Below, one piece after another: positions 1-17,016 of a DNA stretch of 64,000 bases (position 1 is the first letter of the stretch; the number at the start of each line of letters is the position of its first letter). The translations under genes and the position numbers were made by a program. Under the pieces are notes generated by a model. It ran no database searches and was not told the DNA's origin. It saw only the letters and a program-made list of their open reading frames with translations. Source of the DNA: Acidobacteriota bacterium (GTDB lineage Bacteria > Acidobacteriota > UBA6911 > RPQK01 > JADFOI01); contig OY760074.1 of NCBI GenBank assembly GCA_963663035.1, positions 2,816,001 to 2,880,000 of the forward strand. Reading direction: 5' to 3'.

Positions 1-2
1 TC

Positions 3-2114
3 TCCAAGACGTTCATGATCGTGGCCAACGAGGACACCGACAGCGACAATGAGACGATAGAGTTGGGCTTCGGGACGCTGCCAGAGGGGGTCAGCAAAGG
101 TGAGATGGCCACGGCCACCCTCACCATCGTAGACGCTGGCCCGCCGGAGCTGACGGTAAGCTTTGCGCGGGCCGAGTACACAATTGCCGAAGGAGGCGAG
201 CCGTCCAGCATCAATGTGAACATCTCCCCGGCTGCGGACCGCCGGGTGGAAGTGCCGCTAGTAGTGACGACGCAAGGAGGTGCGACGAGCCAGGACTACG
301 ACGGGGTGCCGGCGTCGATCGTCTTCGAGGTCGGCGCGACCGTGGTCACTTTCCAGATGACCGCGTTGGCGGATCAGGAGGATGATCCGGGCAAGAGTAT
401 TGTCCTTGGATTCGGGGATCTGCCGGAGGCGGTCAGTGAAGGCGACCCCTCAGAGACCACGGTGAAGTTCACCCAGCAACGCAGCGCGGAGCAGTTTTCG
501 GCATCGATGAAGATCCTGCTGGCGGTAACTGCCCGTTCGGTGGCAGATAGCGCGCAGACGGCGATCCAGTCTCGATTCCAGCGCAAGCGCCAGTTGATGC
601 GGAACAGGCAGTCCGCACGCGGTCCGAACACGGGGGGAAGCCTGTCTGCCGGCCTGGCCAGCAGCAACGGCTCGGGTCTCAGCAGGGCCGGTGCTTTAAA
701 TCACATGCCAGAGGTCGATAGATTCGGCTTTGCATCCCCCAGGCTGGCCGAGGGCGCTGGTCCGTCGATGGGCTCGACCCGCTCAGGCAGCTTGCATAAC
801 TCCTTGGCTCCCGACTATGGCATCGCGCCCACCCAAGCGGCCTACGGGTACGATACGCTCCAAAGGACCTCCACGGCTGACCCATCGCTGGGGGCTCTCC
901 AGTTCTCCGGGATAAGGGCTCGACAACCGGTCCTTTCCCAGGCTTCCTTCAACCTCCAAATGGGAGAAAGCCCCAGGGGCAACGACGGGAGTGGGAGTGT
1001 AGCTCTGTGGGTTCAGGGCGACCTGCAAGACTTCAACGGGAATATCACCCGGGGTGGGATGGACTATCGCGGTGTCATGGGGGCCGTCCACGTTGGACTG
1101 GACCTCTACAACAGCGAACAGATGCTCGTCGGCTTCTCCTTCATGCGAAGCTTTGCTCGTATCAATTACAACGCCGATGGGGTCCATGGGATGTTTAGGA
1201 ATGGTATGAACACGGCTCATCCGTATCTGTACTGGCAGCCCAACGAGCGCTTCAGTGCGTGGGTCATTGGAGGCTTAGGAAGAGGTGAAGTTGATGTCAA
1301 TGAGCCGGGCCGAGCTCACGACTTAACTTCCGACTTTCGTATGTTCTCGGGCGGGATGCGCTCGGTACCGGCCAAGCGGGGCAACACGGAGGTGGGCGTT
1401 GTTGTAGATTCTTTCACTGCACGCCTCGGAACCAACGCTTCGAAAGACATCGAAAGGGTAAGTGGCCAAGTCAGCCGGACAAGGATGATGCTGGAAATTG
1501 TCCACGACAAGCCTCTGGAAGCGGGGAGATCGCTAAGCATTAAGGCAGAATTTGGGCACCGCCACGACGCGGGCGACGCGGATAGGGGTTCTGGGGCGGA
1601 AGCCGGCTTCCGTCTCGGCTATCTGGATGCGGCCGGCGGTCTGGACATTGCGTGGCACGGCCGGATGCTGCTGGTGCGTGAAAGTGACTACCGCGACTTC
1701 GGAGTAGGAATACAGGTTAGCTGGGACTCGGGGGAAAAACATCGGGGTCTGCAACTGTCGATGATGTCTTCGCGCGGACACGATGGGGGAGGCAGGACGA
1801 CGCTGTGGAACAACTCGGCCCTGGTCACCCGTCCCATGGGCTCGGGCTACATGCCCAACGCCTCCCAGACCAGCACGAGCAGCGAGGTGGCCTACGGAAT
1901 GGACATCTTCGGCGGATGGGGTTTGCTGACGCCCTACAGCCGCCTGCAACTTGCCGGCTATGGGAGCGACCTGCGCGTGGGCACCGAATTGAGCCTGCTT
2001 TCTCGCGGGCTGCCAGCGCAGCCCGCGAAGTTCCAATTGGAAGGGATCAGGCGGGAAACCCCCAACCGCATGATCGATCTAGGCATTATGTTAGGAATCT
2101 CGATTCCTTTCTGA
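3..2114 (+). CDS. Calx-beta-repeat surface protein with C-terminal autotransporter-like beta-barrel (5' partial)
   Basis: Frame open to the window edge. Calx-beta-like repeats (LTVSFARAEYTIAEG, DDPGKSIVLGFGDLP), low-complexity linker, amphipathic beta-strand C-terminal domain ending in F. Confidence 0.75.
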   Translation, partial: SKTFMIVANEDTDSDNETIELGFGTLPEGVSKGEMATATLTIVDAGPPELTVSFARAEYTIAEGGEPSSINVNISPAADRRVEVPLVVTTQGGATSQDYDGVPASIVFEVGATVVTFQMTALADQEDDPGKSIVLGFGDLPEAVSEGDPSETTVKFTQQRSAEQFSASMKILLAVTARSVADSAQTAIQSRFQRKRQLMRNRQSARGPNTGGSLSAGLASSNGSGLSRAGALNHMPEVDRFGFASPRLAEGAGPSMGSTRSGSLHNSLAPDYGIAPTQAAYGYDTLQRTSTADPSLGALQFSGIRARQPVLSQASFNLQMGESPRGNDGSGSVALWVQGDLQDFNGNITRGGMDYRGVMGAVHVGLDLYNSEQMLVGFSFMRSFARINYNADGVHGMFRNGMNTAHPYLYWQPNERFSAWVIGGLGRGEVDVNEPGRAHDLTSDFRMFSGGMRSVPAKRGNTEVGVVVDSFTARLGTNASKDIERVSGQVSRTRMMLEIVHDKPLEAGRSLSIKAEFGHRHDAGDADRGSGAEAGFRLGYLDAAGGLDIAWHGRMLLVRESDYRDFGVGIQVSWDSGEKHRGLQLSMMSSRGHDGGGRTTLWNNSALVTRPMGSGYMPNASQTSTSSEVAYGMDIFGGWGLLTPYSRLQLAGYGSDLRVGTELSLLSRGLPAQPAKFQLEGIRRETPNRMIDLGIMLGISIPF

Positions 2115-2559
2115 GGACGTTAGGAAGAAAAACATCGGAACGTCGTTTTCGTTCCGCTAGGCTACACATAACGAGCCGAAAAACCGGTTGTGTTGCTGTA
2201 CGTCTTCAGCGAAAGTGGGACATTTTGAGTCCTCGGCTAAGAGACAGTGGGAACCGATGGGGTGGCGGGGACGCAGGCTTCCCCTGGAAAGACACCATCC
2301 AAAAGTAGAACTTTCTGGCACGATGGAACAGGAGGTTCTCGATGAAGCTGTTCGACTCTCTGGGATGAATGCCACGCTAAGGCCTCATATTTGGCCGTGG
2401 CTGCATCGCTAAGGTATGGGAAAGGGCCGTTTCGGATGGCTCTTCGCGTATGACTTTTCCGTTTCGTGAGGTGACCCCATATAGCGCGTATCAACGACAG
2501 CGAACTGCCGATACGGGCGCTGGTGTCACAGATTATTTCCTAACCCTCTCGACCTTCAT

Positions 2560-3150
2560 TTAGCGGCTCCGGGCCTTCCGTGATTTCCTTACACTCGCCT
2601 TTCCCGATCTCCCAGAATTGACGTAACCTTTCTGAACGGTCCGAGCTGAAGCTCGCCTCTGCGAGTGAACAGAGCTAAGTGCCGAAACTTGGAATTGTAA
2701 ACATTCACCACGTGCCAGGGAATTCTTCTCTATGACTCTCAGATTTTCATTAAGATTCCACAGTTCTATACCTCTTGCATGGCCCCCTTTGTTTTCGACT
2801 ATCCACAACCCCCAATTCCCCTGGAAAGCGATTCTAAGAGCGAGCCGGGGTATGGAATCCTGGTAGTCTGTTGTTACTTGCTCCTGTAACAATTCAGTCT
2901 GCTTGCCGAGCTGTTTCCGTGTAAGCGCTAGTTCCTCGCGCTGAAGGCGGAGCTCTTTGGACTGTAGGAGATACCCGTATACCAACCAACCGAAAGCCAG
3001 GGGTGTGAAAACGCCTGCGAAAAAGTCTCCCAACTCGTTGAGGTTGCCTGCCCTTAAGAGCTCCCAAGCATCGTTAACACGAAGAAAGAGAATGGTGGCG
3101 ATGTAAAGAATGCTCAGGGCACCCATCACGAAAATGCCAGCATGCTTCAT
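2560..3150 (-). CDS. Hypothetical membrane protein with coiled coil
   Basis: Two hydrophobic helices, LNELGDFFAGVFTPLAFGWL motif and ELRLQREELALTRKQL coiled coil. The C-terminus may be frameshifted. Confidence 0.65.
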   Translation of the reverse strand: MKHAGIFVMGALSILYIATILFLRVNDAWELLRAGNLNELGDFFAGVFTPLAFGWLVYGYLLQSKELRLQREELALTRKQLGKQTELLQEQVTTDYQDSIPRLALRIAFQGNWGLWIVENKGGHARGIELWNLNENLRVIEKNSLARGECLQFQVSALSSVHSQRRASARTVQKGYVNSGRSGKASVRKSRKARSR

Positions 3151-3634
3151 TCACTTCCCCTTCTCGACCCATCCGCGTATCACAGGAGACCTTCCGGCCA
3201 CTCGCACATCTTGATAGCGGTCCGCCGCGGATTCAAATCGATGATACCCTCTGCAAGAAACTGTCGCTGCCGTCTCTCACTCCAATCCGCGAGCTTCTGG
3301 TTCGAGAGCCAGGTCTGACCGGGCAAAAATCACCTTAGGTTCAGCCCCACGGCCCGCCAACTTGGCCACCGCCAAACCCCACATGGGTGATGTGCCCAAG
3401 GCCGCCTAACGACCCTAGAGCTCCCGGGGCCCAAGGAAGTCATGCCACTCACGGCTTTCCCCCTGAAAACCCTCTAGAAAGGTTTGCACAAAGCTACCTG
3501 GAGGCCGTGGATTTCAAGTAGAAGGTGGGGAGTACTCCAAATTTCCGGTCGATCTCAGACAGAGTCTCCTCGTCGTTGACTAGCTCAACTTTGCCCATTC
3601 TCCCATGCCCGCCAGACAAACCCCACACAGAAAA

Positions 3635-3664
3635 GCGTTGTTGCATGGATCGGGGCGGAAACGG
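3635..3664 (-). mobile_element. Orphan IS5-family (IS903-group) terminal inverted repeat
   Basis: GCGTTGTTGCATGGATCGGGGCGGA matches the end of the element at 12758; 3636-3664 is the exact reverse complement of 5199-5227. Confidence 0.8.
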
Positions 3665-3693
3665 GACCGGTCATCAGATGGCCTCCCAGTGGC

Positions 3694-3721
3694 GAGTAAC
3701 ATAAAGGACGTTATGTTACTC
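3694..3721 (+). other. dif/Xer-like recombination site 1 (symmetric)
   Basis: GAGTAACATAA-AGGACG-TTATGTTACTC: perfect 11-bp inverted arms, 6-bp spacer, XerD-like TTATGTTA arm. Confidence 0.7.
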
Positions 3722-3794
3722 CATAAGGGGAGGCAAGTGCATGAACATGGTTGCTTCCGAGCGCAGCAGAAGCGCACGACCAGTGCCCGACCGG

Positions 3795-3914
3795 GGCATT
3801 GTCAAGTTAACGCATCACAAGCTGAGATAGCCCCACGATATCGTTCGTAAAACCACGTCTGAGTAGTCGATATGGTGGCTTGGTCCATCGTCAACCAGTT
3901 AACGTGACAATGCC
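3795..3914. mobile_element. 120-bp IS6-type MITE
   Basis: Ends GGCATTGTCAAGTTAAC / GTTAACGTGACAATGCC (16/17 inverted match), no ORF; partial second copy at 5716. Confidence 0.7.
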
Positions 3915-3988
3915 CTCCTGGACAACACTGGTCGGTCCAAGGCCAGTCACAATTGGACTGAGCCGGTTTAATGTGGTAACAATAACTC

Positions 3989-4258
3989 TTGAAGATCGAG
4001 TTCAGCACAGCGAAGCGCAATGCCACTCTTGAGTCCCGAGGGCTGGATATGGCCCGTGCCGGCGACGTGTTCGTCGACGACACGCTCACCGTGGAAGACG
4101 ACCGGCGAGACTATGGGGAGGACCGTTTCATCACGGTCGGCTTTCTTGACGGGACGATGGTGGTTCTGGTCTGGACACCCCGCGACGAGGCGTATCGGAT
4201 CATTAGCATGAGGAAAGCCAATGAACGCGAAAGAGCACTCTACACCCCGAGATTTTGA
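3989..4258 (+). CDS. brnT: BrnT family toxin
   Basis: KRNATLESRGLDM..., DYGEDRFITVG, RIISMRKANERER motifs. Confidence 0.9.
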   Translation: MKIEFSTAKRNATLESRGLDMARAGDVFVDDTLTVEDDRRDYGEDRFITVGFLDGTMVVLVWTPRDEAYRIISMRKANERERALYTPRF

Positions 4259-4478
4259 TCCGGACACCGCGCCGGACCTGTCCAGGGACGGCTGGCCGGA
4301 GAAGTTTTCCAAGGCGGCGGTCCGGCGGGGGCGGCCACCGCTCGCCAAACCGAAAGTGTCCACCACCATCCGGCTGTCGCAGGATGTGATCGATCATTTC
4401 CGAGCCGGTGGCCCCCGCTGGCAGACACGGATCGACGACGCCCTTCGCGAGTGGATCGGGAAGCGCGACACAGCGTGA
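4221..4478 (+). CDS. brnA: BrnA family antitoxin
   Basis: RRGRPPLAKPKVSTTIRLSQDVIDHFRAGGPRWQTRIDDALREW; overlaps brnT. Confidence 0.9.
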   Translation: MNAKEHSTPRDFDPDTAPDLSRDGWPEKFSKAAVRRGRPPLAKPKVSTTIRLSQDVIDHFRAGGPRWQTRIDDALREWIGKRDTA

Positions 4479-4489
4479 CCTCCTAACGG

Positions 4490-4915
4490 ATGACCCACTC
4501 ATTCGGTCTTGATGCGCCTTCGGCGCTTGAGGCGTTCAAGAACGCCGCAGAGAAGTTTAAAGACGACGAACTCAATGAGGACCTGGCGCGCGATTGCGCC
4601 TGCAAAGCCTGGCATCTCTGTGATCACGTATACCAAGCGCTTGGTTCAAATTCCCAATTCTCAAGCGTGCGGAAACTCCAGGAGAACGTCAAAGACACCT
4701 GCCGTGAACTAGCCTACCTGCAGGATATTTGCATCGAGTCAAAACACGGAAAGTTTACGCACCATACGCCTCGAATTGATGGAGCCAAATTTCAAGACGG
4801 CGACTTCGACCCGGCTGATTTTGGCCACGACTTCGATATTCCGCGTCTTGAAGTGCTATTAGAAGGCCAGCCAATCTTGTTCAACGATATCGTCGTTCGT
4901 GCCGTGGAGTTTTGA
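4490..4915 (+). CDS. Hypothetical protein, possibly HEPN-like
   Basis: Helical ORF directly after brnA with AWHLCDH and LQDICIESKH motifs; the TGA may be slightly premature. Confidence 0.55.
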   Translation: MTHSFGLDAPSALEAFKNAAEKFKDDELNEDLARDCACKAWHLCDHVYQALGSNSQFSSVRKLQENVKDTCRELAYLQDICIESKHGKFTHHTPRIDGAKFQDGDFDPADFGHDFDIPRLEVLLEGQPILFNDIVVRAVEF

Positions 4916-5017
4916 TCAAAACTCTTTGATGATAACGGGATCAAGTGAATGAGGGAAAGGGGATTGAAGGTGATCTGTCACCGGATGCTTGCAAGGTTCT
5001 TCTCCGGTGGCGCAGCT

Positions 5018-5227
5018 GAATAGAAACGCAGATCGGCCGTTGGAAGAGCTTCATCGTCCCCAGACTCCAATTCCGCAGCTTCTCCAGGCAGATCACGGAG
5101 ATCCAACTCGGCCAGAAAGTCCTGAACACAACGACCGCACTCGGACCGCCTGTGTTCGAACGCATGGCCTGACGCTACGGCTTGGAAAAGGGTTAATTCC
5201 GTTTCCGCCCCGATCCATGCAACAACG
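5018..5227 (+). mobile_element. IS5-family transposase 3' remnant with terminal IR
   Basis: Diverged reverse-complement match to 12759-~12965, ending GATCCATGCAACAACG. Confidence 0.8.
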
Positions 5228-5244
5228 TGCTTCCGGGGCCTATA

Positions 5245-5694
5245 TCACGAAAGCCCTGCCCCGCCTTGCTCGCTGCCGCCCAACGCCGCCAGACGGCGGG
5301 CGCGCCACCGCAGGAGCCACAGCACCAGCCACGCCGGGAGCGAGACGATCCCGGCGTAAATCCAGATGCCGGGCGGTCCGAACAGACCGCCGATGGTGGC
5401 GGCGGCCACCGAGAGTGGACAAAGTACGGCCGCGCACGCGTATGTAGCCGGCCGAGAAACCGGATGCAGCCGCTCCAGGGCGCGCGTCAGCGGGATGCCG
5501 CCGGGCCAGGCGAAGACGAGTCCGAAGACCATCGCGGGCAGGGAGAACAGCATAGGGACGAAACCGGTAGAGAAACTCGGGTCGAAGCCGAACCGGATCA
5601 CCGACAGAACGACCACGCCAATCGGCAGCCACAGCGAGAGCTTCAGCGTTCGTATCATACGGATTGAGCTTACCACGGTGTCCCGAGAGGCCAC
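5245..5694 (-). CDS. Hypothetical integral membrane protein
   Basis: About four hydrophobic segments; start uncertain. Confidence 0.55.
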   Translation of the reverse strand: MASRDTVVSSIRMIRTLKLSLWLPIGVVVLSVIRFGFDPSFSTGFVPMLFSLPAMVFGLVFAWPGGIPLTRALERLHPVSRPATYACAAVLCPLSVAAATIGGLFGPPGIWIYAGIVSLPAWLVLWLLRWRARRLAALGGSEQGGAGLS

Positions 5695-5715
5695 CCCTCC
5701 GGGATCGATTCGTTG

Positions 5716-5795
5716 GGCACTGTCAAGTTAACGCGTCACAAGCTGAGACAGCTCCAAGATATCGTTAGTAAAACCACGTCTTAATACTCGATAGG
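5716..5795 (+). repeat. Partial second copy of the IS6-type MITE end
   Basis: GGCACTGTCAAGTTAACGCGTCACAAGCTGAGA...GTAAAACCACGTCT parallels 3795-3870. Confidence 0.75.
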
Positions 5796-5960
5796 GTTCA
5801 GCACCGTTTCAAGAGACGTGCGTTTTTTGGCATTGTTCACTTTCCGGGCCGGATCCGGCTCGGTCTGGTTCGAAGCGTCCCCCAACTAAAACGAACCTCG
5901 CAAGCGACCGAACGTCGTCGGCTCGCTGATGACCGATCGGGCCCTGGTCGATCTATTTTA

Positions 5961-5988
5961 GAGTGTGATAACGTCCTTCATCACACTC
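5961..5988 (-). other. dif/Xer-like recombination site 2 (near-symmetric, inverted spacer)
   Basis: GAGTGTGATAA-CGTCCT-TCATCACACTC: arms 10/11 inverted; spacer is the reverse complement of AGGACG. Confidence 0.6.
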
Positions 5989-6044
5989 TATGGTCACAGA
6001 AGATGACCTGCTCGCCCCGGCCACCGAAATCCTCGTCTCCCCGA

Positions 6045-6139
6045 GACGCTGCACTTGCCCAGTGGCGTCAACTCGGGGAGGCCTAATCCCCTGTCCTCGA
6101 TGAAATAACTCAGACCTGCAACTTTACTCTGACAGTGCC
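6045..6139 (+). mobile_element. IS6 3' remnant with right IR
   Basis: GCACTTGCCCAGTGGCGTCAACTCGGG...CTCTGACAGTGCC is homologous to ~16900-16990. Confidence 0.8.
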
Positions 6140-6313
6140 AAATATTCAGCTTTAGCCGGAATTAAATGTTTGGCCCTCCGCCGGTTGCGAGTATATACCT
6201 TATGTTTTACTTCAGCCGAATACCCGTCTTGCGAAGGATCTTCCGACGTTCCCGGCAAATCGGACTAATCGGTCTGTCCAGGTCTCCCTTGTTGGCAAAT
6301 CAGATGGACCCGT

Positions 6314-7210
6314 TCAGTTGCCGAACAGGCGTTTGACGGTAAACGTTAGCGCCCAGGAACGCGCGCCGGTGAACCTGTTGTAGTTGGAGAAGTCGGGATC
6401 CTGCTCATGAAACGGGTGAATAGCGTATCCGCCACTGGTTTCCATGCTGCCCAGCATCGAGTAAGTCAGCTTCAGTCCCAACAATGTCTTGTCGCTCAGG
6501 CTGTAGTCGACACCTGCGTGCAGGTGCCCGGCCAAGACCGTGTCGGACAGGTCGGCATCCTGGCTGCCGTTGTAGAACGACAGAGGAGGATCGTAGGCTG
6601 AAGCATTGGCCGATGTGTCCTGGTAATCGGTGGAGAAGTGCACCCCGGAGACCTCGACAAACGCAGGACCCAGCCCGATGCCCAGGTATGGGGAAATTCC
6701 GCTGAACGCATCCGGAAAATCATAGTACGCATTGAGCGAAAGAGTGCGCACAAGGAGACTGTCGATCGAAGCCTGACCATTGGACACGACCGAACCGCGG
6801 TGCCTTTCCCCCAGGGGCGTCCCATCGTAATAGGTGATGCCGCGGAACATCTGGTCGAGGCTGTTCTTCCGCTGCGCGAACGACAACTCCAGGCGCGTAC
6901 GATCGAAGATACGACCAGCCGAGATCTCGAACACGGCTCCGGCGGCTGCCGGGATATCGTAACGCCAGCGGTATCCGGAGATTTCGGGGATAGGGTCCGC
7001 ATCGAAACAAGCATCCGTCGGATAGCAGGTCGACTCCCGATTCCAGCCCTCCTGATCCAGGTCGGCTGCCCAATTCGATCCGATGCCCCCGCCGAGATAC
7101 CATCCGGAGCGCTGCACCCCCCCGACCCCGCTCTGGGCCAACAGATTGGAGATGGGGCAGAGTATCAAGATTCCACCGACGGTGGATGCGATGAACGATG
7201 CAAGACGCAT
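6314..7210 (-). CDS. Outer membrane beta-barrel protein (opacity/P44-Msp2-like)
   Basis: Signal peptide, GWYLGGGIG, LNAYYDF, SPYLGIGLG, AGVDYSLSD strands. Confidence 0.8.
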   Translation of the reverse strand: MRLASFIASTVGGILILCPISNLLAQSGVGGVQRSGWYLGGGIGSNWAADLDQEGWNRESTCYPTDACFDADPIPEISGYRWRYDIPAAAGAVFEISAGRIFDRTRLELSFAQRKNSLDQMFRGITYYDGTPLGERHRGSVVSNGQASIDSLLVRTLSLNAYYDFPDAFSGISPYLGIGLGPAFVEVSGVHFSTDYQDTSANASAYDPPLSFYNGSQDADLSDTVLAGHLHAGVDYSLSDKTLLGLKLTYSMLGSMETSGGYAIHPFHEQDPDFSNYNRFTGARSWALTFTVKRLFGN

Positions 7211-7400
7211 GGAGAGTTTCTACACGGGATTTCCTTTTAGCCTTCGGGCGGTTAAAAGTATACATCCATCTGCGTCCGACCGAGCACGATTTTTCTCCGA
7301 GAGGCCCATCGGCTCATAAACACCCTTCCAGAAGTCTTCACTGGCTGGCAATGCTGTCAGCAATATTGAACGCCGCGGCATCGGCCTCCGGAAGGCACTG

Positions 7401-7538
7401 TCAGAGTTCCTGCTGGACGATTTCCTTGACGAGATCGAAAGTCTCTTCGTCACCGCATCCTGGTATCGATTGGACAGCGCCGCATCCGGCGAGCGTCGAA
7501 CAAATGAAAACGGCGCGGGCGACGGGTTCAAGTCTCAT
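7401..7538 (-). pseudogene. Truncated lipoprotein fragment abutting an orphan IS6 IR (7394-7407)
   Basis: LAGC lipobox; the frame ends inside the reverse complement of GGCACTGTCAGAGT. Confidence 0.4.
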
Positions 7539-7570
7539 TCCGTGTTCAAGCCTCCTTGCCGACGCTTCCT

Positions 7571-8795
7571 TGGTGCATTCCGGACACATAGGTTACAGTT
7601 TATTCCGAAGACATAGGTAACACCTTTGCACCAAAAGGGTTATTTATAGGACCTTCTACTGTCTTTCAAAGTAACCGAGGTCGTATTCCATAAACGACAC
7701 CAGCCAAATTTTCTCTTTGACCTCTTTGATTCCAACATCTTGACCAGCAAACACCGTGCTGAAGTTGATCTTTTGACTTTTCATACAGATTCTGCCGCAG
7801 CTGGTGACGGTCACGGTGCGATCGTGCATGGGGTACTCGACGCGCCCGATTCCTCGGTAGGGACAAGATGCGGGAGTATAGACCTCGGACGGAAACTTCA
7901 TGCCCAGGGCCTCATGAGGTCTCTCGTATTCCGCCTGAAAGGCATTAAACCTCTCTTGCTGCTGAAGAAGGTTGTGGGCAGCGGGAACGACTGTGGCCTT
8001 CTTGAGGGTGAGATGAAGGCGCTCATGCCTTCCGTTCTGCTCGGGATGGCCGGGCTTGATCCTCTCGATTCGGATTCCTAGCCTAAGCCACCAGACGGCC
8101 AGTCGACTGAGTCCAAACAATCCGTTGGGTGATGCAAAAGGGACTCCGTTGTCCGTGCGGATCGCTTCCGGCAAAGACTCTTGAAAGGTTCTCTCGAATA
8201 CGGGGAAAGCACCTCTTTCCTTAACACTGTCGAGAGCCTCGATGGCGAGCAGATAACGGCTGGCGTGATCGCTCACGGTGAGAGGATAACAGTACCTGGC
8301 ATGAACTCTCCTTTGAAGTCGGCAGACCAAAGGTCATTGGGATTCTGGCTGCTGGACAATCGAGTCCCCTCTGCCTTGAACCGTCGCCGTTTTCTACATC
8401 ACCAGGCCGTTGCGATCCAGAACCGCGTGAACTGTGCTCACCGCAGGCGGATTCGGAAACCTACGAATCAGGAGCGCCCGAATCTTGGGAGCTCCCCAAT
8501 ACGGCTTCTCTCGCTTTAGCCTGACCAGGGTCCGTTCCACCTGTTCGGGCAGTTGGTTCGTAACGATGCGGCTTGCGGCTCCGATCCACCAGGGCGTAAG
8601 CGCCGGTGTTTTGATAGCGGTTCCAAATCTTGTAGCCCGTCTTTCTGGATATCCCAAACTCCTCACACAGACGGCTCATTTCGCTATAAATCTCATTCTC
8701 TCGTCCATCACACAGCTTCCATGGCATCTCTGGGCACCTCCCGAGTGTTACCCATGTGTCCGGTATAATTTGTTACCCATCTTTCGGAATGGGCA
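7571..8795 (-). mobile_element. IS481-family element, deletion-riddled copy
   Basis: Identical to 61755-63052 except for 11 indels totalling 73 bp; transposase fragmented. Confidence 0.95.
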
Positions 8796-8930
8796 CTTTC
8801 GGCATAGGTCAGTGGACCTATTGCGGTCCCTCCTTTTTTCCCACCTCGAGTATCTCCCGGAGGCCTTCCTCCAGTCTGCCTTCGGATTGGCGTTTGCCCA
8901 ATGCAATGGACCTTTTTACCCTCCCTAGAG

Positions 8931-9740
8931 GGTTCTGGTGCAGATAGGATTGTCGGAGCGATAAGACCAGGAGTGCGCCCTGGCGATGCGGCCTATGCTG
9001 CCATGACGTGACGCCAGATCACGGCAGGATTCGACTGCCATGGGATCGGAATTGCGAACTGGCGTTTGTGAATCTTCTGCGCCAGCTCGATGCCGATAAT
9101 GACACGTCGCGCATTGTAGAACGTCTTGAATCCCAACATCGAGCGCAATCGCCCTTTCACCCGGCGGTGGTCCTGCTCCACAACGTTGTTCAGGTATTGA
9201 CAGCAACGAATCTTCACCGGGTTCCGCCCCCGGAAGTTGAACTCCCCGTTCATTCCCATGTGCCGCAGGGCGCTATGGCTCGGCCGGTGGCCATCCAGAG
9301 GTGATGCTGTGTGGCTCCCGACGATGCTTCAGCGCCTTGCGAAAGAAGGCCTTCGCCGCTGCGATGCCACGTGCCCGACTGAGAAAGAACTCCACAGTGT
9401 TGCCCTGTCCGTCCACGGCTCGATACAGGTACATCCACTGGCCCCGCACCTTGATAAACGTTTCATCAACCCGCCAACTCCCACCCACCGGCCGTTCGAA
9501 TCGGCTCCAACGCCTTTCGCAGATTTCGGCATAGCGAACGACCCACCGCAAGATTGTGGTGTGCGAAATCGGTAAACCCCGCTCACCTAAAATCTCGACC
9601 AGGTCCCGGTAACTCAGTTTGAAGCGGAAATACCAGCGAAGGCAGAGAAGAATGATGTCGTCTATAGAGGATTCCGTTCCGTTTTACGATGCGCCATATC
9701 TCATTATCGCCAATCCCTGTTGGCTGTCTGCACCAGAACC
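8931..9740 (-). mobile_element. IS6-family element with frameshifted transposase (8993-9697)
   Basis: 14-bp perfect IR GGTTCTGGTGCAGA; LSYRDL, WRVDETFIKV, YLYRAVD, LNNVVEQDHR motifs spread over three frames. Confidence 0.9.
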
Positions 9741-10486
9741 TCCTCGCCACTCTCCTGCAACGCCTTACGGTGCGTTTCGAGACGCGCCTGGTGCTCTCGC
9801 AGCGCCGTAATCTTCTGTGCCAGATCCCGCCCCCGCCCCTTGCTGGGGCTCGCATCGGCCATGTCGGCCGCGTCCATCTCATCCATCTGCTGCAGGTACC
9901 GCTCCAGCCGTTCCTGGCTCGCCGCCAGATCGCGCCGCAGCTTGGCCACGGTGAAGTTCCGGTCCCGGCTGTTCACCGCCTTGATCCGCGTGCCATCGAC
10001 CGCGATCAACTCCCGGCCGAACAGTTCCAGGCTCCGGCACACCTTCACGAAGTCACGGAACACTTGCCGGAACGCCTCCCGGTTCTCGCGCCGGAAATCC
10101 GCAATGGTCTTGAAGTTCGGCCGCAGGCGGCGCAACAGCCAGATCGCCTCCAGGTTGCGGTGGGTTTCCGCCTCCAGCCGTCGGCTGGACCGCACCCGGT
10201 TCAGATACCCGTAGATGTACAGCTTCAGCAAGTCGGAGGGATCGTACCCCGGGCGCCCTGTCTCTTTCGGCTCTGCTCGTTCGAACCCGGCCCCAGCCAA
10301 GTCGAGACTGTCGACGAAAGCGTCGATGAACCGCACTGGGTTGTCGGGACCCACATAGTCGTCTACCGTGTCCGGCAGTAGAAGCACCTGTGCGCGATCT
10401 GTCCCCGTGATGTGTGCCATGCCCCATTCTACCTCCAGTAGGCAGGGGGGCGTCCCGGGGGACCCGGTGGGTTTTCACACAGTCTG
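9741..10486 (-). mobile_element. IS1182-family element truncated by IS6
   Basis: GRPGYDPSDLLKLYIYGYLNRVRSSRRLE and AVDGTRIKA motifs; end CAGACTGTGTGAAAAC; ORF cut at the IS6 IR. Confidence 0.9.
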
Positions 10487-10785
10487 GAGCGGTTACGCAA
10501 TGATCCGGCTCCAGACGTATTCACAAGGGTTCTTCCTATCCGGCTCAGGCGAATTGCCTGGAGCACCGTGGACATACCGCTGATCCCGACCAAAGTAAAC
10601 ACGGCCCAGGACAGAAAGGCTTCGGTCCCGCCTCCAGCGTGAACCACGATCGCCGCCGTCAAAACGATGCCGGCGACGAAGAGGATGGCTGGTTGTAGGC
10701 CGAGACCGAAGGCAAGCAGTATCGAAGGTCGGACGTCCGGTTTGTAGTGAATGCTTGTGCACAACTCCGAATCGTCAGCAGCCAT
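10487..10785 (-). pseudogene. N-terminal fragment of an NCS2 (xanthine/uracil)-like permease
   Basis: YKPDVRPSILLAFGLGLQ...GMSTVLQAIRLSRIG resembles the NCS2 N-terminus; truncated. Confidence 0.55.
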
Positions 10786-10965
10786 ACCGTCATCCTATGC
10801 CACACATGGACTCGTAGGTGCAAACGCGCTGTGAGTTTTGCCGACCCCAGCCTATGGCTGCAAGGCCCTCATTCGCGGGCCTCAGAACCAAGGCGCATTA
10901 ACAAGCCCTGGTCGGATAGTCTGGCGGCTCATTTAAGCGGATTTATGCACCCACGGCAAACCGGG

Positions 10966-12624
10966 TCAACTCTGGATCGCCTGCCGGGCAGTGAGAATGT
11001 CGTTGACGAGGCTCTGAACGTTCTGCTCGTCAATGAACGGCGAGAGAATGAAGCTCTTCAGGCCCACCATCGGCTCGCCGTAATCCGTTTCGCGATAGCA
11101 ATCTGTCATCGAGATGTGCACGCCTTCGCCACGCATGGCCCGGTCGTAGAGATATCGGAACAGTCGGCGATTATAGTCGTTGTGGCGCAGCAACTCTTCC
11201 CGGGCGTCTGGATCGGTACGCTCGCGGTCCTTAATGGTCCACGTATCGACCCCGTCGGGATAAACCCGAAACACCGTGACCGTTCCGATGCCGTCGTCGT
11301 TGAGCACCGTCGTCGAATCATGCCCTTCGAGATGCTCGCGCAGTGATTCGGCCATCTCCACAAGGTGGCCGAGGAGAACGCGGAGGCCGATCCGGCCGAA
11401 GAGATGGAGGTTAGCGTACGCTGCGAGCACGCCTGAACCGCTACGCGAAGCCTCCAGCGTAAACATCCCGGGGTGGCGCTCGCCGGACTGGAACAGATAC
11501 GGCATCTCGTTCCGGCCACGCACGAGGTATTGCAGGTCGGCTCGGTCACGGACCAGAACCAAGCTCGAGATGTATGGCGCGAAGCCGGTTTTGTGGAAGT
11601 CGACTCCGATGGAGTCGGCCCGGTGCAGCTTCGAGATGCGACGGCAAGCCGCCGCGAGCGCCCGCACCGTGCGTGGACGAAACCCGAGTGGATTCCGTTC
11701 GAAGTCGTAGCCGTTGAACACCGACCACGCCCATCCGATGACGGCGTCGGCGTGGACGTGCGGCGTGTAGTCGAGGTCGTAGTCGTCGACCAACCGGTCA
11801 CGCAGGTCGACGACCGCGTCGAGATCGTCTACGCCGAACGCGTCGGTTGTACCCATCGTCGCAACCAGCGCCACGATGCGCCGACCCTGGTCGATCGCCG
11901 CGCGGGCGGCCGCGTCGAGCCGGTCGATGCGGATGTCGTTTTGCAGGTGCGTCGGCACTTCAACAACGTTCTTCTCGCCGAGGCCGAGCCAGCCGGCGAC
12001 ATTCAGGCGGCAGTAGTGGCTCTGCGCCGACGCCAGGATCACGCCGTCCGCACGGATGCCGTTGCCCATCGCGTCGGGAAACGCCTTCTCGATGCCGAGC
12101 TTAATGCCGTAGAGCATCGTGCCAGTCCCGCCGAACGTAAAGACGCCGTCCGACTGCTCTGCGTCATAGCCGATGAGCCGGGCCACCATCGCGGCAACCG
12201 ACGCTTCGGTCAGCGCAAGGCCGTACGATGTATCATCGGAGACGAGGTTCGGGTTGTAGATGGCGGACAGCAGCGAGCCGATGATGCTCGGGATCGATGA
12301 CGGCGGGATAACGTTGATCTGCGTCCGCGGATGCCCCCAGATCGGTAGACCTTCGAGCTTGTCGACCAGCAGGCTCGTCACCTCCTCCACGCTGCGTCCC
12401 TCCTCAGCCAACTCCGTCTGCTCGGTGGACGTGTAATCGAGCTCACGAGGTCGGCCGAGCAGTGGCACCTCGGACTTCATGGCGTCGGCCTGATCAAGTG
12501 CCCGCATGATCGAGAAGACAAAGTACGCGTCGTGCATCCGGTCGGAAACCGGCGCAGGGAAGGCGTTACGTATCCGGGTCAGCAGTTCGTGGTAGATGGC
12601 ATTAGTCATGCGTAGAGAGTCCAT
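10966..12624 (-). CDS. Group II PLP-dependent decarboxylase
   Basis: GVFTFGGTG, ATMGTTDAFGVD, HADAVIG, SIGVDFHK (PLP lysine). Confidence 0.9.
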   Translation of the reverse strand: MDSLRMTNAIYHELLTRIRNAFPAPVSDRMHDAYFVFSIMRALDQADAMKSEVPLLGRPRELDYTSTEQTELAEEGRSVEEVTSLLVDKLEGLPIWGHPRTQINVIPPSSIPSIIGSLLSAIYNPNLVSDDTSYGLALTEASVAAMVARLIGYDAEQSDGVFTFGGTGTMLYGIKLGIEKAFPDAMGNGIRADGVILASAQSHYCRLNVAGWLGLGEKNVVEVPTHLQNDIRIDRLDAAARAAIDQGRRIVALVATMGTTDAFGVDDLDAVVDLRDRLVDDYDLDYTPHVHADAVIGWAWSVFNGYDFERNPLGFRPRTVRALAAACRRISKLHRADSIGVDFHKTGFAPYISSLVLVRDRADLQYLVRGRNEMPYLFQSGERHPGMFTLEASRSGSGVLAAYANLHLFGRIGLRVLLGHLVEMAESLREHLEGHDSTTVLNDDGIGTVTVFRVYPDGVDTWTIKDRERTDPDAREELLRHNDYNRRLFRYLYDRAMRGEGVHISMTDCYRETDYGEPMVGLKSFILSPFIDEQNVQSLVNDILTARQAIQS

Positions 12625-12756
12625 GCTGGAGCAATCACGTCAAAGCCCTCCGGCATCGGGCGTAATGCGCGGGCCCTGTAAGGCAACCGTCAAAAAGCCA
12701 TTGAACTTGCACTGAACGGGTATTGTCAAGTTACCGGTGAACGAACAAGTTCGATC

Positions 12757-13861
12757 AGCGTTGTTGCATGGATCGGGGCGGAGATGGAATTCGCCCTTTC
12801 TCAAGCGGTAGCGTCAGGCGATGCGTTGGAACACAGGCCGCCCGAGTGCGGTCATTGCGTTCAGAACTTTCTGGCCGACCTGGATCTCCGCGATTTGCCT
12901 GGAGAAGCTGCGAGATTTGAGCTTGGGGCCGATCACGCTCTTCCAACGACCGATCTGCGTTTCTATCCGGCTGCGTTGGTTGTACCCTGTGGCCACTTGC
13001 CAGGCCATGCGGCCGTTGCTGCGGATCTGGGCAATATGGCGATCCCGAACGGTTGGATCCCGCGCCGATTGCGGTCGGATCACTGCGTTCTTCGGCGGCG
13101 GTATAACCACATCCAGGGTCTCCCCATACCGCTGCCTCAGCATATCCCGTATAGACGCTCCATCATAGGCGCCGTCAGCCAGAAAGCCCGCGACAGGAGC
13201 ATCGAGTTGATCCAGGAGCCCGGGTAAGGCGGCGCTGTCTCCAACCTCATCGTGAGTCAGATCGGCGCAAACAATCGCACCGCTGGCCAGGTCCAGTCCG
13301 AGGTGGAGTTTGCGCCAGCGGCGGCGTATTCCCTTGATTTTATGCTTCTGGGCGAGCCATTCCCCCTCGCCGAAGATCTTGAGGCCGGTACTGTCCACCA
13401 CCAGATGGACAGCCACAGACCCGGCTTGCCTCATCGCCTGAGCGATGCTCAAGCCGTTTGCGCGACGCGACAGTGTGGAGTAATCCGGCACCCGTATATC
13501 CAGCCCCATGAGCGTGCCGATGGAGCCCATAAGTCCCTGCGTTTGCCGCAACGCAAGCCGATACGTCGTGCGCAGCGTCAGGCAGGTCTCGATCGCCAAA
13601 TCCGAGTATCTCCACTGGCCACCCCGTGACGTGCGGCGCGGCGCGCTCCACACACTTTGCGCCTCCTCACTGACCCAGATCGTCAGATCGCCCCCGCTGG
13701 CGCAGGCTCTCGTTATATTCCGCCCAGTCGATCACCCGATACTGCGCCTTATCGAACTTGTGCCGTCGGGATGCGTTGAACTTATGTGGCATCTAAGTTA
13801 TCCCCAGTGTTGAAAAACACCATGATTAGACATCCTTCGGGATGATCCATGCAACAAGGTC
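12757..13861 (-). mobile_element. IS5-family (IS903-group) element; transposase 12814-13792 with +1 frameshift
   Basis: IRs containing TTGTTGCATGGATC at both ends; VDSTGLK, RRWRKLHL, LADGAYD motifs; extra base in the C5 run at 13691-13695. Confidence 0.9.
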
Positions 13862-14192
13862 GTCCAGAGATGACTTCCCGGAAATAGACGGGGGAAGTGC
13901 CGTATTCGGTTCGCTTGTTCGTAGCGGAAATTACGATGGAGGCCCTATTTTAGACAGAGGCCCTTAAAAACCCGTAGGGCGTGGGATCGTTGCGGAACCG
14001 TTCCTTTGTGCAATCCCATCTATCGATATTCTTCAGATCATCTTCCCGCGGTCGGCATGGCCCATGGGATTGTACAATTGCCTTGCCCGGCAATCGTTTC
14101 TCCGAAGAGCTGTCGCCCTTGCCCTTGGTATAATCATTGGCGATAATCGAAGATTGCAGACTGATCGGAAATCGCCACCCCGGGAAACATCA

Positions 14193-14624
14193 ATGACTTC
14201 GCCGGTGCGAAGCGTGAATGTTGATCATGTGTCTCGGCTGATGGAAGCCGTCCGTATCGGGGGAGAATTGGACATGGAGAAATTCCTTCGGGTGGCATCC
14301 GATATCGGTGGCTACACGCCTGAAACGGACCCGGGCCACAAACCGGCTGGGCGGGTGGGAGCGTCTGACGATACCGTGAGATTAGAGTGGGTTTCCCGGT
14401 GGCTAGGTTTGAAGGATCCAGAAGCCGAAGTCCTGTTCGGTCTCGGCAAACCACGGTACACGCCTTCCGGTATCACGCGTGAGCATCTGTTGGCCGTGTT
14501 GGAGGCGATCCGCGAATGTGAGCCGGTGGATCGGGATATCTGGGCCAAGCACGATCCGGATCGGGACCGGAAACTTTCCGGCCTGCCTCCAAAAACCACG
14601 AGCCCACAGGAGGTAGGACCATGA
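14193..14624 (+). CDS. Hypothetical protein (phage/MGE-like)
   Basis: Plausible ORF, coupled to the next gene through an ATGA overlap. Confidence 0.55.
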   Translation: MTSPVRSVNVDHVSRLMEAVRIGGELDMEKFLRVASDIGGYTPETDPGHKPAGRVGASDDTVRLEWVSRWLGLKDPEAEVLFGLGKPRYTPSGITREHLLAVLEAIRECEPVDRDIWAKHDPDRDRKLSGLPPKTTSPQEVGP

Positions 14625-14863
14625 ACATGGATATGTACGTCTACCGGGTGACTGAAAAGCCGGATTCTGAAAGCGTCGGCGAGCCGGGAGAGCCATTCGA
14701 GGCGTTCAACTTGAGCGAGGCGAAGCGCATCTCAACGCGACGGCAGAAGGTAAAGGGGAGCGTGCTCGTCCTGGAGGATCTGACCGGCAGGCCACGCGTT
14801 GTCTCAACCAAAGGTACAAGCGGAAAATGGACGGATGAGGAAGAAGAGGAGACGTCCTACTAA
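14621..14863 (+). CDS. Small hypothetical protein (phage/MGE-like)
   Basis: GGAGGTAGGA RBS, ATGA overlap, acidic tail. Confidence 0.6.
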   Translation: MNMDMYVYRVTEKPDSESVGEPGEPFEAFNLSEAKRISTRRQKVKGSVLVLEDLTGRPRVVSTKGTSGKWTDEEEEETSY

Positions 14864-14985
14864 AGGGGTGTGCAGGCCACAAGGCAGCTGTTGCGACCTG
14901 CATCTCCGAGGCGCTGGACGCCACATGATTCCGTCTCTAACTTAGAGGTTGAGACCACTCGTAGGGACAGGTCAGCCTCACAAAA

Positions 14986-15013
14986 AGGAACGATAAAGGA
15001 CGTTATGTTACTC
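14986..15013 (+). other. dif-like site 3 (canonical XerC|XerD layout)
   Basis: AGGAACGATAA-AGGACG-TTATGTTACTC fits the ..ATAA-N6-TTATGT.. dif pattern; the last 21 bp are identical to site 1. Confidence 0.7.
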
Positions 15014-15125
15014 TCTCATGGGAAGTTGATATTAAGCGTATACTCCCCAAAGTCTTGAACGGTTTTTTTGTCACTGCCTTTGGGTCCGTACCGCTTCGGT
15101 GCACACCCAGGCCAGCAGCAGCAGC

Positions 15126-15428
15126 GGTATCCAGAATGTCCTCAACGACAAGAACGTCCCGTCCCTGAATGGGAATCTGAATCTCCTTGGTGACCTGCAC
15201 GCTCAAACGGGACTGGTCGTCTGAACCCTAGCTGGAAAGGCCCACGAAATCCACCGTCACGGGCACCTCAACGGACCGGACCAGATCGGCCATGAAGATG
15301 AAGCTCCCCTTCAAAAGACCGACCACTACCAGATCCCGCCCGGCGTAGTCCTGGGACACCGCACCGGCTAACTCCTTGACCCGGCCTGCGATCTGATGAG
15401 AGGAGTAAAGTGGCGTTAGGCCTTTCAA
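15126..15428 (-). pseudogene. hpt: Hypoxanthine phosphoribosyltransferase pseudogene
   Basis: VGLLKGSFIFMADL, SS*G (in-frame TAG at 15228-15230), VLVVEDILDT, then homology is lost. Confidence 0.85.
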
Positions 15429-15470
15429 ACCAGCGCTTCCTCTGGAGCGCCCGTACGATGCAGTATCGGT

Positions 15471-16160
15471 TTAGTTGATCCAGTCACCGTGGGCCTCCAC
15501 GGTCTCCACCTCTTCCATCTCGAAGACTTCACACGACCGGATCTTCCGTTTCCTGAACTGGAAGTAGCCCACCGCCGCCAGGATGCCGATGCCGCAGCCG
15601 ATGGCGTGTGTCCGGTAGCTCACCTCCGGAGAGAGGTTGGTGGGGATCAACACCACCAGTCCCACACCGACGGCATGCAGAAGACGCCTCGAGAACGACC
15701 GGGTTCTCTCGATGAGAACATAGAGGGTCAACCAGAAACCGGCCATCAGGTAGACGACTCCCGAGGCCCCTACCAGCCGGGTGTCAGGGGAATAAGTGAG
15801 AAGTGAACAGTAATTGGTGAACGCGCCTAGGATCAGCATGCCGAGCGGATGGACCCAGAAGCCGAAAGAGCCGTAAAGAAGGTAGGCGAAAAAGGTGAAA
15901 AATAGCGCATTGGCCAGAAAGTGTCTGAGATCGGCATGAACGGCGATCGCCGTGAACAATCTCCAGTACTCCCCCTCCACCCGAACCTGGCGTGGAATCG
16001 CCGCCAGAAGCTGAAACCATTCAGGTTCCCGCCAGCAGATCATGGAGAGAAACAAAAGCAGCATGACACTGATGACGGCAACCAGCAGGCTCTCGTCTCG
16101 CGGAGGCTCTGAGAGCATGGTCCTTTTGATGCGTACGCCTCCCATCCCCAGCACAGGCAT
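15471..16160 (-). CDS. Rhomboid family intramembrane serine protease
   Basis: EYWRLFT, HFLAN, GASG, H..G motifs. Confidence 0.85.
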   Translation of the reverse strand: MPVLGMGGVRIKRTMLSEPPRDESLLVAVISVMLLLFLSMICWREPEWFQLLAAIPRQVRVEGEYWRLFTAIAVHADLRHFLANALFFTFFAYLLYGSFGFWVHPLGMLILGAFTNYCSLLTYSPDTRLVGASGVVYLMAGFWLTLYVLIERTRSFSRRLLHAVGVGLVVLIPTNLSPEVSYRTHAIGCGIGILAAVGYFQFRKRKIRSCEVFEMEEVETVEAHGDWIN

Positions 16161-16179
16161 GCGGAAATAGTATCAGCAC

Positions 16180-16991
16180 GGCATTGTCAGAGAAAAACAG
16201 GCTTGATTCGGCGAGATGCGTCTTGTAAGTGTCTTTGGATGAAGAGCCCATTTCGCTATTTCAAGACTTCGCCCGAAATCATCCGCCTTGCGGTGATGAT
16301 GTAGGTGCGGTTTCCACTGTCGCTACGCAATGTCGAGGACCTTCTCCACGAGCGCGGGATCGAGGTGAGCCACGAGACCATCCGGTTCTGGTGGAACCGC
16401 TTTGGCCCGATCTTTGCCGCCGAGATCCGCAAGAAGCGGAAGGGTCGAATGCGGGCGTTGTCGGGTTGTCGGTGGCACCTCGATGAGGTGTTCGTGAAGA
16501 TCAATGGCGAACGCCATTACCTGTGGCGTGCCGTGGACCAGGAAGGCGAGGTGCTGGAGGCCTTTGTCTCGAAGAAGAAAGACCGCAAGGCCGCCTTGAA
16601 ATTCCTCAGGAAACTGATGAAGCGCTACCCTAGACCGGATGCGATCATCACGGATCGGCTAAGGTCTTACCGCGCGGCATTGCGTGAACTGGGCGGAAGC
16701 GGTCTGCATCAAGCTGGCCGCTGGCGGAACAATCGTGCGGAGAATTCCCACCTGCCGTTCCGGCGGCGAGAACACGCAATGCTCCGTTTCAGGCGGATGC
16801 GAAGCCTCCAGAAATTTGCCGCCGCCCATTCTTCCGTCTACAACCACTTCAACCTGCGGCGATCCCTCTGCTCACGGGACAATTTCAAGCTCAACCGCGC
16901 CTCTGCACTTGCCAAGTGGCGTTAACTCGGGCGGCCTAATTCCCTATCGCCAGTGGAGAACTCAGACCTGCTAATTTCCTCTGACAGTGCT
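16180..16991 (+). mobile_element. IS6-family element copy A (transposase from 16239, in-frame TAG)
   Basis: IRs GGCATTGTCAGAG / CTCTGACAGTGC; WHLDEVFVKING, LWRAVD, NNRAENSH motifs; TAG at 16302-16304. Confidence 0.95.
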
Positions 16992-17016
16992 TTTTGCGGG
17001 GGGGGGTAGGTCAGCT

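Follow-up and report, generated by a model that had tools for sequence, protein, structure and literature searches.

The window analysed here is a 64,000-nucleotide stretch of an Acidobacteriota genome (GCA_963663035.1, contig OY760074.1, positions 2,816,001 to 2,880,000), and it carries three 28-bp sites in which two 11-bp arms enclose the 6-bp spacer AGGACG. Two further sites of this type are located outside the window on the same contig. We consider it likely that the five sites are orphan copies of the core site of a widespread group of Xer-like tyrosine recombinases of about 324 amino acids, which reside on plasmids and integrative elements. Modules of a plasmid-type recombinase and its site are of a known kind, and new members of it are found here as orphans. 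In this genome, a block of 110 kb or more is thereby recognised as decayed DNA of plasmids or integrative and conjugative elements (ICEs), and these dif look-alikes are shown not to be the chromosome's own dimer-resolution site. Positions below refer to the window unless the contig is named.

Sites in the window and in the genome

Site 1 (3694..3721, plus strand) is an orphan core site of the CATAA class with perfect 11-bp inverted arms around AGGACG. Site 2 (5961..5988, read on the minus strand) has arms of the GATAA/TTATC class around the same spacer. For site 3 (14986..15013, plus strand), the spacer and the right arm are canonical and the left arm is off-consensus; its right arm is that of site 1, and the site is half-canonical and possibly a hybrid. 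The inner bases ATAA and TTAT are present in all three. Letters and coordinates of the three sites agree exactly with an earlier reading that was made from the letters of the window (the sequence-only reading), and the alternating spacer orientation (+,-,+) given there is correct.

The 14-nt core ATAAAGGACGTTAT, with up to two mismatches allowed, occurs three times in the window versus 0.12 expected occurrences, and none of 100 shuffles of the window reached three copies. The genome, a single contig of 3.59 Mb with 54% G+C, was scanned as the sequence-only reading had proposed, and it contains five sites whose spacer reads AGGAC[G/A]. All of them are confined to 110 kb of mobile DNA at contig positions 2,722,622-2,831,013, the fourth at contig 2722622-2722649 and the fifth at contig 2811316-2811343. 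A regulon of transcription-factor operators was rejected, since the motif is not scattered upstream of promoters and its five copies stand in one block. The exact core was found in none of six genomes of the same genus. Orphan sites, with no recombinase gene adjacent, are also present in the relative genomes G028, G029, G033, G052 and G057. An integron attC site appears unlikely from length and motifs.

A recombinase gene next to the site

A scan of 61 genomes (this genome and 60 relatives) for GTAAC-type arms, with any spacer allowed, detected sites in six other genomes, mostly with the AGGACG spacer and with other, mostly palindromic arms. The core in other genomes reads CATAA-AGGACG-TTATG inside loosely palindromic outer arms, and in three of those six a gene for a protein of about 325 amino acids (MTQEITP start) begins about 17-20 bp after the site. 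The family protein (about 324 amino acids) comprises a Phage_integrase and a SAM-like domain. Its best NCBIfam match is XerD with 118.9 bits, compared with a cut-off of 329.6, and the closest solved structure is XerD 1a0p (E 7.6e-16). The family has at least 8,000 related proteins, all with E <= 0.001, and the best 120 are at least 70% identical. The catalytic set R-K-H-R-H-Y is intact: among 53 full-length members, K197, H274 and R277 are present in all 53, and R171, H300 and Y309 in 52 each.

Eighty loci with the recombinase gene (57-100% identity) come from Acidobacteriota, Planctomycetota, Armatimonadota, Verrucomicrobiota and Alpha-, Beta- and Gammaproteobacteria. With up to one change in the spacer, an AGGACG site is found at 64 of them, as a single copy in 62 and as two copies in the other two. 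Fifty-one sites could be paired with an open reading frame (ORF). The spacer is exactly AGGACG in 46 of these and has the orientation of the gene in 41, being inverted in the remaining ten; 38 of the sites are less than 100 bp away from the first start codon. AAGGAcgttATG was also considered as part of an ORF or as a ribosome-binding site, a reading that was rejected because its ATG does not share the reading frame of the gene in L012 and because ten sites are inverted.

The arms follow the consensus R-Y-G-Y-A-N-C-A-T-A-A, in which positions 3, 5 and 7-11 are nearly fixed, and the motif of the full site is R-Y-G-Y-A-N-CATAA, AGGACG, TTATG-N-T-R-C-R-Y. Both arms of the same site agree at 9.37 of 11 positions, versus 7.77 for arms from different sites, which indicates that the palindromy mostly represents two copies of a protein-binding motif and not covariation within a stem. 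Imperfect palindromes make up 36 of the 51 sites, many of which combine arms from two classes, and distal and proximal arms follow the identity of the recombinase about equally. Nucleotide homology among the loci comprises the site and the gene only (about 1.02 kb), and none of the genes neighbouring the recombinase is conserved. A second end behind the recombinase stop codon was searched for and discarded, as no conserved motif was seen there. The gene has a patchy distribution in the order, being present in 18 of 76 genomes (up to four matches per genome, some of them truncated), and it was detected in none of 14 genomes of the family to which the present genome belongs.

Compared with this motif, site 1 matches R-Y-G-Y-A-N-CATAA save for position 2. 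Site 2 belongs to the GATAA class of the loci L078 and L092 and of the plasmids L111, L113, L115, L116 and L118, and site 3 matches the family consensus on its right arm only. The sequence comparison supports the assignment of sites 1-3 as recombination-type sites of an Xer-like single-subunit tyrosine recombinase. The family is very common, yet its members are annotated merely as 'XerD' or 'integrase', and the comparison provides them with a recognisable site. A narrow literature search returned no description of this site or family, which does not show that either is unpublished.

Plasmid context and proposed function

Members of the family are encoded on 139 plasmid records, led by Sphingobium and Burkholderia, and are rare in phages (three records, 39.5% identity). 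Eight plasmid records, seven whole and the eighth as a 12.9-kb part, were analysed for 11-6-11 palindromes in which 9 or more of the 11 arm positions are symmetric. Exactly one such palindrome was found in each of the eight, upstream of the recombinase gene or operon, and in six of them one or two small ORFs lie between palindrome and recombinase gene. The spacers on the plasmid records are TGTCCT/AGGACA, AGGACG, TATCCT and AGGGGA, and rep, par, toxin-antitoxin and restriction genes are located near the site. The complete chromosome of G035 likewise has one site. One site per replicon beside its own recombinase gene is the layout of multimer-resolution modules. For secondary replicons, the same general point is made in a 2026 preprint, and the classification paper PMC8138268 reports simple Xer-like recombinases on mobile elements.

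From this architecture and the plasmid context, we infer multimer resolution as the function of the pair. A recombinase monomer would sit on each of the two 11-bp arms, cleavage would fall at the borders of the asymmetric spacer AGGACG, and strand exchange would proceed via a Holliday junction. The single plasmid site, directly upstream of the recombinase gene or small operon, would be present as two direct repeats in a dimer, and recombination between these would yield monomers. The site probably overlaps the promoter of the recombinase gene. In the present genome, the sites would have come with conjugative-plasmid or ICE DNA that integrated and was then broken by insertion sequence (IS) elements, and the recombinase genes have been lost. 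The sites are probably inert relics unless an incoming plasmid brings the enzyme. If the enzyme were supplied, sites 1 and 3, which are direct repeats, could delete 11.3 kb, and the inverted sites 1 and 2 could flip 2.3 kb.

The enzyme is absent from this genome. No member of the family was detected by tblastn, the best match being the host XerD with 27.7% identity, and within 1.5 kb of all five sites no recombinase remnants were found at E < 0.03, apart from a stub at site 2. Sites 1-3 are orphans, and all that remains in the window of the recombinase gene beside its site is this stub, a 5' remnant of about 11 codons (MVTEDDLLAP..., 5990..~6018, plus strand) that was recognised by alignment with L092 and by its translation. 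The near-twin of site 2 in G052 (L092) matches it at 86.8% over 76 bp, including roughly 24 bp on either side of the site, and adjoins a frameshifted recombinase gene, which runs on into recombinase motifs past the frameshift. The sequence-only reading had stated that no recombinase gene lies in the window. This holds as far as PF00589 is concerned, for which matches were found only at 0.90, 1.26, 1.47 (a fragment), 1.83, 2.03, 2.63 and 3.07 Mb of the contig, and it has to be amended by the stub beside site 2. A short ORF with a strong ribosome-binding site (3741..3830, plus strand) follows site 1 after 19 nt. It may be another remnant of a recombinase 5' end, a weak hint being the residues ..RPVP.., as in the N-termini of the GTAAC class; its tblastn search gave no significant match.

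The host Xer system and dif

The sequence-only reading had offered either the host Xer proteins or a single-subunit recombinase as the enzyme that acts on the sites, and it had asked for a list of the host xer genes. One XerC (345 bits, cut-off 335.15) and one canonical XerD (398.6 bits, cut-off 329.6) score above their cut-offs. Cumulative GC skew has its peak at 1.22-1.3 Mb and its minimum near 3.2 Mb. The likely chromosomal dif, ..GGATAA-GAAATA-TTATGTAAAG, is located at the peak (contig 1,265,982-1,266,003). Twenty of 31 relatives have one copy of a dif with the GAAATA spacer; the reversed control gave no match. This spacer differs from the AGGACG of sites 1-3. The XerC-side arm of the host dif (..ACGTCGGATAA) is missing from sites 1 and 2, both of which are symmetric, and the XerD-side arm shares only 7 of its 11 positions with the right arm of sites 1 and 3. 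Spacer and arms do not support the host Xer half of the earlier suggestion; the single-subunit half is retained, as the sites match those of another recombinase family. An array of dif sites at the terminus was rejected by position, since the terminus is at about 1.22-1.3 Mb by GC skew and the sites are at 2.72-2.83 Mb.

A 332-amino-acid tyrosine recombinase is encoded 10 kb from the host dif. A further recombinase of the genome, Xer-like and 356 amino acids in length (contig 2632094-2633164), reaches 118 bits with the XerC model (cut-off 335) and has an 11-6-11 site of its own, ..TAACATAA-GATTTA-TTATGTCA.., 32 bp upstream. The pair of gene and GATTTA site (contig 2632094-2633216, L001:9094-10216) lies outside the window and is kept in two of six same-genus genomes, where the site reads TGACATAA. 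The 356-amino-acid protein was considered as a candidate enzyme and set aside, being unrelated to the 324-amino-acid family beyond the fold (BLASTP E 0.10); we treat the two as separate pairs. No dif-like palindrome was found near the remaining four tyrosine recombinases of the genome.

The DNA between sites 1 and 2

It had also been proposed that the sites capture and shuffle cargo as cassettes, and a comparison of the gene content between them was suggested. Between sites 1 and 2 there is a toxin-antitoxin pair, BrnT (3989-4258, plus strand; PF04365, E 3e-22) and BrnA (4221-4478, plus strand; PF14384, E 1.3e-19), which has relatives of 83-88% DNA identity in other genomes. The segment as a whole is a patchwork, and its pieces match 26 other genomes of the order separately. 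These include a 480-bp piece for a membrane protein (90-98% match in other genomes) and an IS end that matches many genomes. The comparison does not bear out the cassette proposal: the pieces occur apart from each other, a site was found within about 1.5 kb of them at none of nine loci elsewhere, and no module bounded by sites was seen.

Alternative explanations

The most serious competitor is a docking or integration system, which overlaps with the explanation favoured above and which we regard as possible, although clearly less probable. Here, any plasmid or ICE with the recombinase would recombine with any resident site, the orphan chromosomal sites would be landing pads, and the array would have been built by serial site-specific plasmid integration and exchange. 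An extension of this idea, to be held just as tentatively, is a network of AGGACG sites in which plasmids, ICEs and chromosomal relics would be mutually recombinable across phyla, with incoming plasmids swapping flanks and leaving cargo. Such exchange would suit the constancy of the spacer across phyla, the many sites that join two arm classes in imperfect palindromes and the orphan sites in five relatives, as well as the observation that homology between loci begins at the site. It would also suit the comparison of site 1 with the site at contig 2722622. Their sequences are 97.7% identical over 86 bp, the shared part running from 71 bp of left flank through the left arm and the spacer to 9 nt of the right arm, and thereafter the right flanks differ. 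A match on one side only would be expected to remain after a spacer crossover with a similar-armed partner. It speaks for the explanation favoured above as well, and from the sequence we infer a past recombination event at site 1. However, none of the loci has an element with a site at each end; 62 of the 80 have one site within 4 kb on either side, and the complete G035 chromosome has a single site. Arm swapping shows no one-sided excess, as distal and proximal arms track the recombinase about equally, and the host dif spacer is conserved across families, too, so that conservation of a spacer is not special.

Several observations also weigh against the explanation of the five sites as orphan core sites of plasmid-borne multimer-resolution modules. 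Resolution alone does not account for a spacer that hardly varies across phyla. Many chromosomal loci consist of the site and the gene alone in unrelated contexts, which an integrase or docking function fits equally well. No site was found with the AGGACG pattern at 16 of the 80 recombinase loci, and ten of the 51 paired sites have a spacer inverted relative to the gene. A 25-nt copy of an IS5-like terminal inverted repeat (3635..3659, plus strand) lies where the homology between site 1 and the sites at contig 2722622 and 2811316 ends on the left, and because the homology ends at an IS terminal repeat, IS events also shaped this junction. Plasmid DNA may have been joined to the single contig by assembly. 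Finally, in two complete chromosomes the distance between the pair of gene and site and the point opposite dnaA is only 6.6% (G035) and 4.7% (G024) of the genome length, which may reflect a chromosomal role in some hosts; in G077 it is far from this point. A role of the family in chromosomal dimer resolution is nevertheless unlikely, because the gene is patchy and the host XerCD/dif system is present.

It is very improbable that the palindromes are only operators or promoter elements, for example in autoregulation of the recombinase, or DNA or RNA hairpins at which no crossover takes place. The position of 38 of 51 sites 3-100 bp upstream of the gene start and the -10-like TATGnT in the right arm are in line with a regulatory element, and an 11-bp stem with a conserved loop could be formed by site 1 as well as by site 2. 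But the arms hold a fixed consensus and do not vary freely, most of the sites are imperfect palindromes, and site 3 cannot form a stem. A search of Rfam (E up to 1, window 1-18000) gave no known RNA family. Homology breakpoints located at the sites, the Xer core-site geometry and the adjacent recombinase, catalytically intact by its residues, likewise argue for recombination.

Least probable of all, if only by a little, is a chromosomal array similar to the pdif sites of plasmids on which host XerC and XerD act to capture and shuffle cargo, since the points in its favour (11-6-11 geometry with ATAA/TTAT inner bases, the 7/11 match to the XerD-side arm, alternating orientation and a toxin-antitoxin pair between two sites) are set against a single-copy dif at the GC-skew peak with another spacer and another XerC-side arm, sites 1 and 2 without a XerC-type arm, a match to the cognate site of another recombinase family, the lack of the exact core in six genomes of the genus and cargo pieces that occur elsewhere without sites.

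Genomic surroundings of the sites

The sites are surrounded by genes for RepA_C, ParA, ParB, a type ISP restriction enzyme, VirB3, a VirB4-like ATPase and ArdC, by a resolvase fragment and by many transposases. RepA, ParA, ParB and the 1,119-amino-acid type ISP restriction-modification enzyme are encoded in a row at contig 2798860-2808148 (L003:2860-12148). This region is integrated, decaying plasmid or ICE DNA riddled with IS elements. Blocks that are 95-99% identical (window 7107-8931, contig 2722193-2724649) occur on contig C20 of G028, which belongs to another family of the same order, and this sequence identity points to recent horizontal transfer.

The IS5-like repeat to the left of site 1 has an inverted copy at 5199-5227, within a 217-bp end fragment of the same element (5010..5227, minus strand). 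At site 3, the left-flank repeat, which has a second copy at 1.40 Mb, stops 58 bp short of the site. The right arm of this site is overlapped by the stop codon of a phosphoribosyltransferase-like gene (15003-15428, minus strand) that is split into two ORFs, the first of which matches PF00156 (E 7.7e-07). Site 3 was considered as a chromosomal attachment site within this gene and rejected: in 14 genomes of the family no DNA match to the broken gene was found, and it is therefore not part of the backbone.

An ORF of 98 amino acids (..LCPNCAQVRDAL..) without Pfam match is present at contig 2722206-2722558, 2793074-2793454 and 2810903-2811255. Copies of it precede the sites at contig 2722622 and 2811316, and it is also found in G028. 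A repeat of about 77 bp, built of units of about 31 nt and located at well over 100 places in the genome (e.g. contig 2631300-2631380), could be a repetitive extragenic palindromic (REP) or miniature inverted-repeat transposable element (MITE)-like element.

Public reads were considered as Logan contigs of four runs (X1, X10, X11 and X14), compared over window 2500-16500. None of the 12 listed joints falls into a spacer and all are at IS ends; such contigs are blind to rare variants, so the result weighs on neither side. A 1,227-bp IS with an rve-type transposase (7569-8795) is skipped in all four runs (7568 to 8796) and is an insertion polymorphism in natural populations. For window 3400-6300, at least half of the sampled words are present in 12 public runs, some of which are labelled as sponge metagenome. 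The same part of the window is also present in several organisms.

Comparison with known systems

In the dimer-resolution pairs Cre/loxP of P1 and ResD/rfsF of F, which belong to plasmids or phages, the site adjoins the gene; loxP has the geometry 13-8-13. The present family resembles them in that one tyrosine recombinase goes with inverted arms, an asymmetric spacer and one site per replicon upstream of the gene. Unlike these pairs, it belongs to another sequence family and has the 11-6-11 geometry of the Xer type, and its activity is predicted. With one protein and one 28-bp site the pair is simple, and, if the prediction is true, use as a Cre/lox-like tool could be possible. The defined site should also aid the annotation of plasmid maintenance modules and of orphan sites in metagenome genomes.

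An Xer-related gene beside its own dif-like site is also the arrangement of XerS/difSL in streptococci and lactococci and of XerH/difH in Helicobacter and Campylobacter. The review PMC5357621 names the adjacency of gene and site as a possible hallmark of single-recombinase systems and gives 11 bp for the central region of difSL. These systems are chromosomal, located at the terminus, FtsK-dependent and vertically inherited, whereas the present family is patchy and found on plasmids and islands. In addition, it coexists with the host XerCD/dif system and has a 6-bp spacer, unlike difSL.

Several dif-like sites of alternating orientation with toxin-antitoxin cargo recall the pdif modules of Acinetobacter, in which XerC/D sites surround cargo such as toxin-antitoxin or OXA genes (PMC5790767, PMC12907356). 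A pdif site is composed of a XerC arm and a XerD arm and is a substrate of host XerC and XerD, and pdif modules turn up in many different contexts. In the present case, by contrast, the two arms mirror each other, a different, one-subunit recombinase is the cognate enzyme, and no recurrence of cargo together with sites was seen. Mobile DNA bearing dif-like sites is known as well from integrative mobile elements exploiting Xer (IMEXs), such as the CTX phage, TLC and the gonococcal island, which are reported to integrate at the host dif at the terminus by means of host XerCD. Sites 1-3 differ from these in their spacer and in their location 1.5 Mb from the terminus.

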